A stretch of DNA of 64,000 bases from Candidatus Omnitrophota bacterium (GTDB taxonomy: Bacteria; Omnitrophota; Gorgyraeia; Gygaellales; Profunditerraquicolaceae), in contig JAPLLR010000047.1 in the NCBI GenBank assembly GCA_026387455.1, positions 1,828 through 65,827 of the forward strand. The letters are read 5' to 3'. Shown piece by piece: positions 12,001-21,000 of the stretch (its first letter is position 1; the number at the start of each line of letters is the position of its first letter). The position numbers are program-made.

Positions 12001-15000
12001 AACGGGGTGGCATCCTTGCGGGAGAACATCTTTGATAGCGGCGTAAAATCATAATGCTCGCTAATTAATTTCTCCTCGGAAATAAACAACCTTTTAAATC
12101 CAAAGCGCAAATTTATATACAAATAGGCGTAACCCTTATGATAAAGCATGATTGTACACTTGCCACCGTTTTTCAAAACACGATATGCCTCATCTACTGC
12201 CTTTGAAGTGTCAGGGGTGTGATGCAAGACCCCGAATGAATAGTACGCGTCGAAGCAATTATCTTTAAAAGGAAGATTTTCCGCGTCTGAATTAACCATA
12301 GATCCGGTTAACCCGCAATAGTTAAAACCGGACTTCGTCAGGCGCACGTTATCGAAAGATAGATCAAGACCTACTGCCGACATTCCCCGCTCGGCAAAAT
12401 TCCTTAAGTCAGCTCCCAAGCCGCATCCTACCTCTAAAACCCTACCCTTCGAACCCGAAAGCTCTTTAATCAAAGGGACTACATAAGGCTCATTAGCTAC
12501 CCGGTACCTGTCTACGTTTTTAAAAAAATCCTTATTGATTTCAGGTGACTCAGTCTTGCCTTGTTCCAATCCCGGGACGTTCTTTGACCAATGCTCTTTG
12601 TTTAAACCTTTTACTTGTTTTTTATTATTCATAGTTTTAATTAGTAGAAAAAGTTTTCTTTAATAACGGTCCGAATATCTCCTGTGTGGTATAGCGTTTA
12701 GCAAACTCAAAGGCATTGGCCCTGAAAACATTCCATTTAGAATCATCGCTGAGTATATAACTTACGGCATTTACCAATGAATCGCAATCAAATTCTATCG
12801 ACTTGCCTGCTCCGGCAGCCTCTATCTCATCCGCCACTGAAGGCGCTTTTGAAATAACTACCGGCACACCGCAGAATGCGTATAATTTAGGCTTTCCGGG
12901 ATCAGCATACAAGGTAGGGTTGTCCTCTGAAGGTACATACAAAGCAATGCCTAATGCACACCTAGAAACGACCTCAAAAAGCTCCTTTTCCTCTTTGATA
13001 AAACCCAAAAAATCAAAATAAGATAAAATTCCCAGACGCGCAACTTGCTTCTTCGTATCACTCCAACTTCCTGCGCCTATTATCCTTACCCTTATCTGCG
13101 GGAATTTAGCGACCAGCTTAGGCATAGCTTCTATCAAAAGATGCAGGCCATGCAGATACCCTGAAGTCCCGACAAAAACCAACGACCAGCGATCTACCTG
13201 CATAGCGTCCCTACAATTCAATGATGATTCATCAAAAGTAAGCGGCGCTAAATCCGCTACATAAGACTCCCTAGGCATTCCCCCGAAACGCTCCCTTGCT
13301 TCAGCAATGCGGGGCGAAACAAGCCATATAATGTCACTTGCCCTGATACACCACTTGTCTACAATCGCAAACATCACCAAGTCAGGGGATCTGTTCACCG
13401 GAGGAAAATAATCGCAGCTGTAATAAATCACCTTATGCACAATCTTGAGTCTTTTGAGAATTATCCCCAACAGCGTAGGAAAGAATCCGATGCCCAGAAA
13501 GAAACGCTCCTTGCCTTTTGTCCGGAATCGCAGGCCGCACCAGACAGCTTCCCAGAAATATAGCGCATATGCGCATAAAAACAAGAACGCTTTAATGAAC
13601 TTGATCCTGGGGCTCAATATATTAAAGAGCTTATGCTCATAGATCTTTTGGCTATTTTCGTAAATACTATAACGGGCATCATTGTAATTTGCGAAAATAT
13701 TGCTAAAGCCCAGCACGCAAAAGCTACCGAATCTATCCTTAAAGAACTGCTCAAGAACCTCTAGCCTTCCGGTCAACACATGCCCGCATATAATAAGGGC
13801 TTTTTGATTTATCTGGGACATTAAATTAGGCCTTCTTAAAAACTCCGGTGACCTTACGAAAAACACCTATTGGACTTTTCACTAGGTTATACATTAACCA
13901 TAACGCTTTGTCTTTAAGGCTAACCTTATCCAGGGCAAGCTTGTTAAGAAACTTTTGCACGGAAATCGCCTTTTCCTGCGAAACAGTATCGCAATAATAC
14001 ATGGCACAAGGATTAGCCTGTTCTTTTGCAAATTGAGCAAAATAATCAGCCTCCACTAATCCCCTCTCCTTACATATCTCATTTAACTCTGCGCCCGGAT
14101 AAGGCGTGGCTATAAAAGTCTGGAAATGATCGATCTTAGAAATATTTCTTATAATAAAATCCCTTGTCATTAGCAAATCATCTTCGCTCTCTCCGGGAAT
14201 TCCCACCATAAATGTACCCATGACTTTTAATCCCGCATCCTTCGTCACTTCAATAGCCCGTTGATTAAAATCAATACTCACGTCCGTTTTTTTCAGGAAT
14301 TTCAATATTTTATCTGAGCCTGTTTCAAAACCATAGTCCACCTGTACACACCCTGCGTCTTTCATCAGTTTTAACAGATCCAGATCCTGCCAATCTATCA
14401 GATTAGCCCTGCCCTGCACCTCCCACTTCAGCTGCTTATTTATACCTTCTGCAATAAATCTATTGCATATCTGCCTAACCCTATCCTTATTGATTATAAA
14501 AGTATCGTCCGTAAAGAAAAGTGACTTCACTTTATGTACACGGATCAATTCTTTTACTTCAGCTATGACATAATCTACCGGAAAGTATCGAACCTTCTTG
14601 AATACGATGCCACATGAACAAAAAACACAATCATAAGGACATCCTCTGGATGTGTGCAGCGTAGTTATCCGATTTCCGGAAAGTCCGCGAATTACTAGAT
14701 AATGCGAAAGATACCTTTCCATATTAAAGAGCGACCTGTCAGGAACGGGGATACTCTCTAGCGGCATGATTTCCGGCCGCGAGGGAGTACGAATAAACTC
14801 AACTCCCTTTATAAAAGCCAGTCCCGCAACGCTCCGGAACGCTTCGTACCCCTGCCTTCCCCCTCTCACAAGACCAACGACTTCCCGGAAAGTTTCTTCT
14901 CCTTCTCCGAGGATACCTATATCAAAACTGCCTTTTCTTAAAGTCTGCTCCGGCTCTGCCGAAACGTGTATTCCGCCTATTATCTGAAAGATCTGCGGAG

Positions 15001-18000: not shown

Positions 18001-21000
18001 TAAATAAGCAGAAAGATAGCACAGACCCAGCGGTGGGTTCATTGCCGGCTCAGATGCAAACGGCGCGGGCAATGAAATCAATACTACTTTCTTATTCATA
18101 TATCCCCCTTGAACATCCCAAAATTTATCAGGTTATACTGCTGATGAACTAACATATTTGTTTTTATCCCCGAATCTTGGCAATCCTATAGCAAACAACA
18201 AGCGTAGTTTACCGGAAATTATGTCCATATGCCTTATCAACGCGAAATCCGATATCTTCCTTTGGCTCTGAACCATTTTTCTCAAAACAAAAAGGCTCTT
18301 AAAATCGCGCAGATTCTCTGAATACGATCTTAAATATGCGTTCTTTATTACGGAAGTGTCCCCTCTGGCCAAAAAAGCGATTATTTCAGCCAGACTGATT
18401 AACATGTAAACCGGCAAGATAAAAATGAGAAAGCCTAAGCTGTAATTCTTTAAAACCGATCTTAGTGCGTTAAATTCCCCCAGGAATCTTTTGCGAATAT
18501 TTGTCTGATATTCTTTTAAATCCTGAGTGATACATGCGCTGTCGTGAAAAAACTTAGCATTATCTGCAACAACTACTTCATAGCCATAAAGCCAGCAACG
18601 CCAGCACAGGTCCCTGTCTTCGCCGTAAAGAAACATTTTTTCGTCAAATCTTCCGATTAAATCAAATAACCTTCTTGAGATAAAAATGGCGGCATCCACA
18701 TAAAAAGGAGCGGTTTTTCCATAAGGATAACCGAATAAATCGCAAGGCACTCCGGCATTGATCAGTCTTTCGCCATTGTACGTATAAGTCCTGCATCCGG
18801 CAATACCTATCCTGGAATCCGACTCAAGAACATTTACCAGGCTGGCTATCAAATCGGAACCCGAAAGGGTGTCGTTATTGTAGAAAAACAGGTATTTACC
18901 TTTGGCTAAATCTGCCCCCTTATTCGAAGCAACGGCCAATCCCAGATTCCTACCTAAATCCACAATATTGACCCTTTTGTAATTATCCCGCACAAAAGAT
19001 ACGCTTCCGTCGCAAGAGCCGTTATCCACCAGAATTATCTCGATATTTGCGTAAGTCCCTGCGTAAAGCGAATCAAAACAGCCTTTAAGGTATTTTCTGC
19101 CGTTAAAGTTAACTACAACAATACTTACTAATGGGCTATTTTTCATTTCGAATGATCTGATATATACGTATCTCCGGCCCGAAGCCATTAACCGGTAAGA
19201 ATGCTTTGATCAACTTTATCCCTTTAACCTCCTGATTCAAAAGAGGCGAATAAAAATCTCTGCCTTGCTGAGCAAGAAAAAACAAATAGCCATGACGCTT
19301 ATCGTCAATATACTCAGGTGAATGTTTAAAATTCTGCTCCAGACGGTCCAATACATAGGGCTTAAAAAGATTTCTCTTATAGGGGTCGCTGTCAAATAGA
19401 AACATACTCCACACGTAACTGTTAATAACTAAATACTCGGCCAAATCTTTGTTTATAATCGTGTCAAAATCCTTAAATACAAAATGGCTGTATAGATCGC
19501 GAAAAACAGGTTTTTGTCCAGCCTCAAGGCGTAATTGCTGTGGCATTTTCTTGGGCCAAAGCGGCTCAGCAGAATTAATCTTAAGCTCATCGATTGAATA
19601 ATGCGGCAAAGACTTGATATTTTCTTCATATTGACTGCCGATAAACGGCCGCAGCCGCTCATTATAATATTTTTCCGACATTGGAGTACGCAATAAGAAC
19701 GGAACATTGCTCTCTAGTGGCACAGAGAGAACCGGCCAGTCCATTCCGATACGCGACCCCGAGGGGATATTTGATTCAATCCATTCCTTGGCAATGATAC
19801 GGGTATCTTTATGCATTTTCTTAATATCGATTGCCAGCGCCTGTAGAAACAAGGGGATCACCGCTATCGCCGCTATAATATATGGAACTTTCTTATTGCT
19901 GAACCTTTCAGTAATCTCTATCAAGAAACGCGCCCCAAATACGCACATTAACGGTATCAAGGAAATCACATCGTGAAGCTGACGGAACCCCCATTGAGAA
20001 GTGAAATATAGATGAATAATAATAAAAAGCACAAATATAAGGTCTTCTTTTCGATGGCGAAGTAACGCATAAAATAACCCACAGACCATAATAATGCCTA
20101 AAAGCAGGTCTTGGCGGATCAACTCATAAAAAAACCAACCAGCCATATTAATCAAATTATAGGCATAAGGCGCTGCGGAAGAGAACCCCACACGCGTCAC
20201 ATCCATCATCCATACCATCCTGACCCAAGACTTTTGGAAAATGAAAAGCCAGTAAAAATTCCCCACTAATGCGCAAATACTTAGTAGGCCGAGTGAGGCT
20301 AAAGAATAAATAATTATTTTCTTTTTACTAGGAGAATTTTTATTTAACAAGACCAGCAGATATGACAAAAATAGCGATGGAATAAGGAATACGCCTTGAT
20401 TCTGTACGGAGACACTTAAGCCGACCCAGGTCCCCGCTAACAAAAAATTCCGCAGCCTGGAATCATAGACTAGCCAAGACATATAATAAAAAGCCATCAA
20501 ACATACAAAACAATAAAAAATAGAATAAAGCGCCCACTGAGAATGTTGCAATAACTGGAACTCCCAAAGGACAAAAAGCACGGCCACCACTCCGCTTTTC
20601 CTGCTTTTAAATATACGCGCGCCAAAATAATAAGCCGGCATAGCAATTATTGTACCGAAGACAACGCTTGTTAATCTCGATATAAGATAAACGGGGGTTG
20701 GATCTAATAAAAATTTTAAGGCGAAATCGATATTGCCGGAAAAATAATGAATTAACCGACCAAAAAGGTAATACGCACCATAAACAAACAACAAAAGATA
20801 GCGGTAAAGCAAAGGATAATCCGGCACCTCAGGCACAAGGCTTAAACGATGCCCCATAGAAAATGTGTCAAGGATGATCCGGGCTTCGTCAGGATGGCTT
20901 AAATATGGTAAACCATACCAGATACCCAGCAACCGCAGGGTAAATCCCAACAGACTTATAATAATCAATCCCTTAAGCCAATTTGGCATAGAAACAACCG

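Follow-up and report, generated by a model that had tools for sequence, protein, structure and literature searches.

MoeK5 methylates a lipid-linked sugar of moenomycin, in whose pathway a carbamoyltransferase, the formation of a uronic acid and a B12-dependent radical S-adenosylmethionine (B12-rSAM) enzyme come together. GenK, GenD1, Fms7 and MoeK5 are all B12-rSAM sugar C-methylases, and MoeK5 falls together in a sequence similarity network with Fom3 and with HpnJ, which acts on the glucosamine of a hopanoid and for which a sugar ring contraction has been proposed (PMC9204698). Separately, a three-component system for extracytoplasmic pentofuranose glycosylation has been described in Citrobacter youngae O1/O2 (Kelly et al. 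2024, PMC11127046). There, a polyprenyl phosphoribose synthase (PPPRS) builds a lipid-linked donor from phosphoribosyl pyrophosphate (PRPP), an optional, auxiliary epimerase of the short-chain dehydrogenase/reductase (SDR) type in the cytoplasm alters the pentose, and a glycosyltransferase (GT) of the GT-C fold (GT136) then transfers the sugar in the periplasm, with a MATE flippase as the remaining component. Here we analyze a stretch of 64,000 nucleotides from Candidatus Omnitrophota bacterium (assembly GCA_026387455.1, contig JAPLLR010000047.1, positions 1,828 to 65,827), called the window below, in which three consecutive genes for B12-binding-domain rSAM proteins, R3, R2 and R1, follow an apparent pentofuranose module. 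Like GenK, GenD1, Fms7, MoeK5 and HpnJ, the three proteins have B12 domains and are proposed to act on sugar carbons, but those enzymes serve the biosynthesis of antibiotics or hopanoids, whereas R1 to R3 are encoded in a cell-surface polysaccharide operon. In the interpretation we favor, though we put it at slightly under an even chance, the array encodes a set of three different, non-orthologous class B rSAM glycan-tailoring enzymes, most likely C-methylases.

All the rSAM genes of the window lie on the minus strand. R3 (16705-18099, 464 amino acids, aa) is transcribed first, R2 (15284-16690, 468 aa) is in the middle of the array and R1 (13826-15256, 476 aa) is the last, while a distant fourth member, R4 (33782-35266, 494 aa), sits between GT2 genes and RmlA-like dTDP-sugar genes. 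An earlier, sequence-only reading of the window had placed three of these open reading frames (ORFs) at 13826-18099 and a more distant fourth at 33782-35266 and had proposed that the three share an architecture, and both proposals held exactly. Matches to the B12-binding domain (PF02310, 36.5 to 77.4 bits) and to Radical_SAM (PF04055, 53.8 to 86.2 bits) exceed the Pfam gathering thresholds (GA, 32.1 and 29.5 bits) in all four proteins, with scores in R1, R2, R3 and R4, respectively, of 71, 77.4, 65.1 and 36.5 bits for PF02310 and 86.2, 76.7, 76.4 and 53.8 bits for PF04055. The N-terminal motif given as PPLGL.YL..YL is common to R1 to R3 in the form P[PN]LGLxYL (PPLGLAYLASYL in R1, PNLGLGYLAASL in R2 and PPLGLCYLSAYL in R3) and is missing from R4; similarly, the cluster motif CxxxCxxC is found in R1 (C206x3C210x2C213), R2 (C207/C211/C214) and R3 (C200/C204/C207), but R4 carries a noncanonical Cx4Cx2C (C222WWGKCTFC). 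R1 to R3 also keep a GGxH motif. Pairwise comparison bore out the description of the three as diverged paralogs, with 28 to 31% identity among themselves and 23 to 27% to R4, and the family profiles of R2 and R3 aligned with each other over 410 columns (E = 3e-74).

The same reading took the array for a tandem triplication, and this idea did not survive comparison with homologous loci (L-numbers) and fetched homologous proteins (P-numbers). For each array gene, the best paralog within the window was outscored by 144 to 198 of the 360 fetched proteins. When the 30 rSAM ORFs of 12 glycan-type loci and the window were clustered at ≥45% identity, they fell into 13 subfamilies, and R1, R2, R3 and R4 were in four different ones. 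Because each gene is thus closer to proteins of other genomes than to its neighbors, the array is best described as three old, widespread subfamilies brought together. Orthologs from other metagenomes have 52 to 77% identity to R2, 55 to 87% to R3 (85 to 87% in L094/L095, 72% in the Patescibacteria loci L007/8 and 70% in L005) and 48 to 74% to R1 (74% in L009/L095, 51% in L010 and 48% in L011). The close gene contexts came from the contigs that encode the fetched homologs; a scan of metagenome contigs with the single R2 protein returned one short locus only (L093), and with an R2 profile, a scan of genome contigs found nothing closer than distant relatives (≤41% identity). R1 to R4 are new, uncharacterized subfamilies of a known superfamily.

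Nor are such arrays uncommon in glycan loci, as had been supposed. Related loci from Omnitrophota, Desulfobacterota and other groups have two to five B12-rSAM genes each, and up to seven stand consecutively in other metagenome-assembled genome (MAG) loci (L040 and L038). Clustered runs of five to seven B12-rSAM paralogs were seen at L040 1-10200, L038 7489-16900, L053, L041 and L069/L075, in MAGs of Bathyarchaeia, Bacteroidales and an unclassified marine bacterium. Across MAGs of uncultured anaerobes it is common to find three to seven B12-rSAM genes clustered, and the array of the window is a conserved assembly of old subfamilies that is not rare in these lineages.

The array is part of a tightly packed run of genes in the order SDR epimerase, UbiA, GT-C, GT2, R3, R2, R1, GT4 and two class I methyltransferases. 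The spacers from GT2 to R3, R3 to R2 and R2 to R1 are 33, 14 and 27 nucleotides (nt), and the stop codon of R1 lies 5 nt ahead of the probable ATG of the GT4 gene. The ORF called mechanically for GT4 (12637-13866, minus strand; Pfam Glycos_transf_1, 47.7 bits) starts at a GTG and overlaps R1 by 41 nt; its true start is likely the ATG near 13821 (MSQINQK...). Scans for promoters and terminators found sites at chance level only. Given spacers of 5 to 33 nt and no excess of promoter-like or terminator-like sites, we read this run, from the SDR epimerase to the two methyltransferases, as a single operon, in which the array would be cotranscribed with the epimerase, UbiA and GT-C.

This arrangement is conserved. 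The order epimerase-UbiA-GT-C-GT2-R3-R2-R1-GT4-methyltransferase-methyltransferase is identical in L095, and parts of it recur in L094/L093 and L009. The SDR epimerase is kept upstream of UbiA in L095 (83% identity), the GT-C directly after UbiA in L094/L095 (68 to 70%; 51% in L005), the GT2 gene (18133-19188, minus strand, 351 aa; Pfam Glycos_transf_2, 85.9 bits) directly upstream of R3 in L094, L095 and L005, and GT4 after R1 in L009/L095 (75%). The two class I SAM methyltransferases downstream of the array (11844-12632 and 11139-11837, minus strand; Pfam Methyltransf_11, 82.5 and 57.4 bits) follow in the same order in L009/L095 (85 and 68% identity, respectively). The more distant L005 retains UbiA, GT-C, GT2 and R3, with other rSAM subfamilies in place of R1 and R2 and its rSAM genes interspersed among other genes. 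The proportion of nonsynonymous differences (pN) was 0.09 to 0.16 for R1, R2 and R3, against a saturated synonymous value (pS) of 0.72 to 0.82; dN/dS is not expressed as a ratio for most genes since synonymous sites are saturated, but the low pN alongside that saturation shows that R1 to R3 are under purifying selection.

Upstream of the array, the locus resembles the Citrobacter youngae system: a UbiA-type PPPRS, an adjacent SDR epimerase and a GT-C stand together in an O-antigen-like locus. The UbiA-family polyprenyl-phosphate phosphoribosyltransferase (PPPRS/DPPRS type; 21023-21901, minus strand, 292 aa; Pfam UbiA, 89.6 bits) reaches 283.5 bits with NCBIfam NF008977 (cutoff, 234), an equivalog-level model for decaprenyl-phosphate phosphoribosyltransferase, so that the PPPRS component is present. 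The extended-SDR NAD-dependent epimerase, the gene for which overlaps the start of UbiA (21888-22862, minus strand; Pfam Epimerase, 158 bits), is a candidate auxiliary pentofuranose epimerase, by analogy with ORF13 of the described system (PMC11127046). The candidate GT-C component is a polytopic membrane glycosyltransferase (19136-21010, minus strand, 624 aa), the PMT_2 match of which is marginal (26.7 bits; GA, 26.1) and which adjoins UbiA and is conserved. The stretch from 19136 to 22862 is thus a candidate three-component module for pentofuranose side chains in an Omnitrophota MAG. It differs from the Citrobacter system in that its UbiA protein has no fused PRP phosphatase domain, no MATE flippase adjoins it (the sole MOP flippase lies 16 kb upstream) and three B12-type rSAM genes follow in the operon, whereas PMC11127046 mentions no radical SAM enzyme. 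An operon for pentofuranose glycosylation with rSAM genes conserved inside it is a variant on a known system, one of which we found no description in the literature searched.

The association with this module is closest for R2. Its orthologs lie within 5 kb of UbiA, and often directly adjoin it, in seven of seven independent contexts (the window, L001, L002, L004, L092, L094 and L095), and UbiA is nearby in only 2 of 80 loci of more distant relatives. The neighborhood in a Thermoleophilia MAG has no epimerase and is made up entirely of an R2-like gene, UbiA and a pair of PMT_2-like GT-Cs. R3 orthologs, by contrast, keep company with class I methyltransferases and with sugar dehydrogenases of the UDPG_MGDP type, also in Patescibacteria and in a region of phage-like character. 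Near R1 orthologs lie genes for GT4 or GT2, for carbamoyltransferases, for FAD oxidases and for DUF6311-like membrane proteins.

Some of these homologs have features of their own. In the phage-like region (L006 8740-12200), the R3 ortholog (56% identity) lies between a UDPG_MGDP-type dehydrogenase gene and an NAD-synthase-like gene, and next to it are the gene for a 2,240-aa protein and small phage-like ORFs in a long series; it may represent virus- or prophage-encoded glycan tailoring. Two proteins are fusions: P0010 (L092 10001-12154) joins an R2-like domain to a C-terminal class I methyltransferase, and P0305 joins an N-terminal class I methyltransferase to an R1-like domain. These fusions suggest coupled O- and C-methylation chemistry, in which, by analogy with CysS, radical methyl extension might follow O-methylation. 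The fused methyltransferases are only weakly similar to those of the window (P0010 to the one at 25970, 31% identity and 82 bits; P0305 to the one at 11844, 47 bits), which we do not count as evidence.

What class of enzyme the array encodes was judged from fold, family scores and cofactor-site residues, the relation to GenK, GenD1, Fom3 and MoeK5 being assessed by proxy from NCBIfam and PDB scores. Both parts expected of a class B rSAM enzyme are there, an N-terminal Rossmann-type cobalamin-binding domain and an rSAM TIM-barrel core (PF04055). AF2 models of R2 and R3 (pLDDT, 92.6 and 95.5) have QCMT/MgmA, TsrM, CysS, TokK and OxsB as their top structural neighbors. The nearest solved structures are about equally close: the B12 methylase QCMT/MgmA (PDB 9CCB), a glutamine C-methyltransferase whose substrate is a protein, MCR, unlike the sugars proposed here, and AprD4 (PDB 6FD2), a cobalamin-free 1,2-diol dehydratase of apramycin biosynthesis. 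Since AprD4 has a Rossmann-like N-terminal domain and yet binds no cobalamin, fold alone is no proof of cobalamin use. The sequence alignments separate the two kinds of protein: the alignments of the R1 to R3 family profiles take in the cobalamin domains of OxsB, TokK, TsrM and CysS, whereas AprD4 aligns over the rSAM core only, its N-terminal domain scoring −3.7 bits and remaining unaligned with those of R1 to R3. Neither of the findings that the sequence-only reading had named as fatal to a methylase assignment, the lack of a cobalamin-binding fold and membership in a non-methylating family such as BchE, was made outright; the N-terminal domains look cobalamin-type, and no named family's cutoff is reached.

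The residues around the predicted cofactor site give a mixed picture. A hydrophobic lower-axial residue is associated with radical methylases, as with W76 of TokK, in contrast to R69 of TsrM and N186 of OxsB (PMC12931638). In a sequence rather than a structural alignment, the position of TsrM R69 and OxsB N186 is occupied by Leu68 in R1, Tyr69 in R2 (family consensus, Phe) and Met76 in R3, that of TokK W76 by Pro70, Asn71 and Val78, respectively, and the lower-axial position of R4 apparently by Lys; the residues aligned in R1 to R3 are consistent with the methylase pattern. TokK also has a hydrophobic residue, Trp215, that stands between cobalamin and the cluster, two positions past the third cluster Cys, which is a tendency and not a rule (PMC12931638), and by our alignment reading CysS has Trp and QCMT has Val there. 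R1 to R3 have Cys215, Gly216 and Lys209, respectively, and so lack this hydrophobic residue.

Taken together, these observations suggest the following scheme. Lying in a conserved operon beside machinery that adds pentoses outside the cytoplasm, the array probably decorates a surface glycan. The epimerase-UbiA-GT-C triad would convert PRPP to a polyprenyl-phosphate-linked pentofuranose donor and pass the sugar to a glycan outside the cytoplasm, and R1 to R3, as soluble proteins, would act on the cytoplasmic side. In each of them a 5'-deoxyadenosyl radical would abstract hydrogen from an unactivated sugar carbon, to which methylcobalamin would, most likely, then donate a methyl group, yielding sugars C-methylated at three positions or three different C-methylated sugars. 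The substrate of R2 would be the lipid-linked pentofuranose donor or a product of that module, and R3 may act on a uronic-acid sugar because it tracks with nucleotide-sugar 6-dehydrogenases. A more specific proposal, which we regard as rather unlikely, is that the R2 orthogroup above all provides a fourth, auxiliary component of polyprenyl-phosphate pentofuranose systems that modifies the lipid-linked ribofuranose donor before transfer by the GT-C, whether by C-methylation, deoxygenation or anaerobic epimerization.

Several observations weigh against three C-methylases. The main alternative is that R1 to R3 modify sugars by radical SAM chemistry other than methylation. This could be a deoxygenation or 1,2-diol dehydration of the AprD4 kind, for which cobalamin may not be needed, an HpnJ-like ring contraction, a radical epimerization, or a radical beta-elimination of the 5-phosphate of polyprenyl-P-ribose-5-P to give a deoxy-pentofuranose. 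None of R1 to R4 reaches an NCBIfam equivalog cutoff, the best partial matches being BchE, HpnJ, ApyD, PhpK and QCMT (97 to 171 bits against cutoffs of 360 to 750), and the top one is to a non-methylase in every case, BchE for R1 and R2 and HpnJ for R3 and R4. AprD4 heads the PDB matches of R1 and R3 when sequence profiles are compared, and AprD4 and HpnJ both act on sugars. We found no PRP/HAD or PAP2 phosphatase in the glycan locus, which also has no evident dedicated phosphoribose phosphatase or DprE1/E2, and the residue two positions past the third cluster Cys is not hydrophobic. The locus already contains six class I methyltransferases, the window as a whole yielded neither cobalamin-supply genes nor a phosphoribose phosphatase, and gene adjacency is the sole basis for assigning substrates to R1 to R3. 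Yet the scores for the non-methylating families are far below membership: 105 to 167 bits against 481.35 for BchE (TIGR02026), 145 to 171 bits against 577.6 for HpnJ (TIGR03471; R3 has the highest, 171 bits) and 25 to 110 bits against 500 for the AprD4-family diol dehydratases (NF033070), with only the C-terminal core aligned in the last case (residues ~163/166 to 392/423). The methylase QCMT fares no better (TIGR04014, 97 to 120 bits against 360, the sequence alignment beginning only at about residue 90). Because likeness to AprD4 in sequence stops at the rSAM core, because the N-terminal domains align with genuine cobalamin domains and because the lower-axial residues, as aligned, are consistent with the hydrophobic pattern of radical methylases, we consider non-methylating chemistry for the array unlikely, though a serious competitor.

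The substrate could also be a lipid, with R1 to R3 C-methylating the polyprenyl phosphate carrier or an isoprenoid much as the hopanoid methylases HpnP and HpnR do. Such B12-rSAM lipid methylases exist (PMC9204698), HpnR gives partial matches of 71 to 90 bits, and the gene that R2 accompanies so closely encodes a UbiA-family enzyme with a polyprenyl substrate. That enzyme, however, is a phosphoribosyltransferase equivalog and not a builder of prenyl chains, the remaining neighbors are all glycan enzymes (GT2, GT4, GT-C, nucleotide-sugar enzymes and a carbamoyltransferase), and R1 and R3 orthologs occur without UbiA, beside sugar dehydrogenases and glycosyltransferases, all of which makes action on a lipid improbable. 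Very improbable, in our estimation, is a local triplication that left co-evolving paralogs to carry out successive methylations of one carbon or substrate in the manner of TokK or CysS, for which iterative methylation is known. The genes are adjacent, on one strand, of similar length and alike in architecture; their low mutual identity, their closer relatives elsewhere and their assignment to three orthogroups, each of which is found alone in other phyla, nevertheless argue otherwise, as does L005, where R3 is retained and other subfamilies stand for R1 and R2, and in the known cases one enzyme suffices for iterative methylation. We regard this model as already largely refuted by the orthogroup analysis. 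A role as maturases of ribosomally synthesized and posttranslationally modified peptides was dropped, there being no precursor-peptide-like genes and every neighbor being a glycan enzyme.

The identification of the context as a glycan locus was correct: every gene from the start of the window to 38211 is on the minus strand, forming one large glycan locus. Among the genes with a family assignment, transcription runs from the MOP/Wzx-type flippase at the upstream end (36973-38211; Pfam Polysacc_synt, 46.5 bits; MatE, 19.4 bits, below GA) through two GT2 genes and R4 to RmlA-like, RmlD-like and RmlB-like dTDP-sugar genes. These are followed by three genes of epimerase/dehydratase families, an ATP-grasp ligase (26660-27895), a methyltransferase, an SDR, a GT2 and a UDP-glucose-dehydrogenase-family enzyme, after which comes the SDR epimerase-UbiA pair. 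Beyond R1 lie GT4, two methyltransferases, a 596-aa membrane protein, an MT_24 methyltransferase, a GDSL protein and the carbamoyltransferase, and two more methyltransferases, a 683-aa membrane protein and a GT2 end the locus. The 596-aa protein (9371-11161, minus strand) is polytopic and DUF6311-like, a candidate additional GT-C; it has no Pfam match itself, but its homologs in L005 and L010 match DUF6311 weakly, and it has 51% identity to the one in L005 and phmmer scores of 556 to 776 bits across L005, L009 and L010. With six class I methyltransferases (genes at 2759, 3482, 8635, 11139, 11844 and 25970), an ATP-grasp ligase and three large polytopic membrane proteins, the locus points to an unusually heavily decorated glycan. 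Like the moenomycin pathway, it pairs uronic-acid formation and a carbamoyltransferase with B12-rSAM genes. The carbamoyltransferase (5629-7446) heads a four-gene module (4165-7446), the others encoding an SxtJ-like membrane protein of 133 aa (5182-5583), a DUF5989-like peptide of 52 aa (5024-5182) and a DUF3108-like protein of 254 aa. This module is also found in L010 and, without a called DUF5989 gene, in L009.

R4 belongs to a small family (404 representatives at E ≤ 1e-30), the motif of which is Cx4Cx2C and not CxxxCxxC. Its closest representatives (P0361, P0362, P0364, P0371 and P0372) are 665 to 972 aa long owing to an intein within the Fe-S cluster motif, with a LAGLIDADG domain in four of the five inteins. 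In the two that were aligned, P0361 and P0372, the intein begins directly after CWWGKCTF or CWYGKCTF, such that the third cluster Cys is the +1 extein residue; R4 of the window has no intein. Outside the glycan locus, the window carries housekeeping genes (TyrRS, S1, a riboflavin operon, PgsA/PgpA, a MiaB-like gene, FtsK and PNPase), with ribE-, ribD-, ribH- and ribBA-like genes in the riboflavin cluster (47489-52012). An Rfam scan of the whole window found no family, the FMN riboswitch included, and a tRNA scan was also empty; from the Rfam result we take the window to have no cobalamin riboswitch.

Our search of the literature for B12-rSAM enzymes in connection with O-antigen, polysaccharide or pentofuranose found no precedent, and in a preprint on Omnitrophota, rSAM comes up solely as part of giant proteins. 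Next to nothing has been described of radical SAM chemistry on polysaccharides of the cell surface. The known sugar-modifying B12-rSAM enzymes come from antibiotic or hopanoid pathways. If what R1 to R3 modify is indeed a lipid-linked pentofuranose donor or an O-antigen-like repeat unit, they would provide a new route to branched or deoxy sugars. They would also be an extension of the three-component pentofuranose pathway described in 2024, and would go some way toward explaining the abundance of unassigned B12-rSAM genes in MAGs of Omnitrophota, Desulfobacterota, Patescibacteria and DPANN archaea. The conserved minimal module of UbiA, GT-C and an R2-like rSAM protein is a testable entry to the function of a large orphan subfamily. 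Should a fourth component of this kind indeed act on the donor, the at least 13 rSAM subfamilies across 12 loci would amount to a combinatorial toolkit with which uncultured anaerobes diversify their surface glycans.

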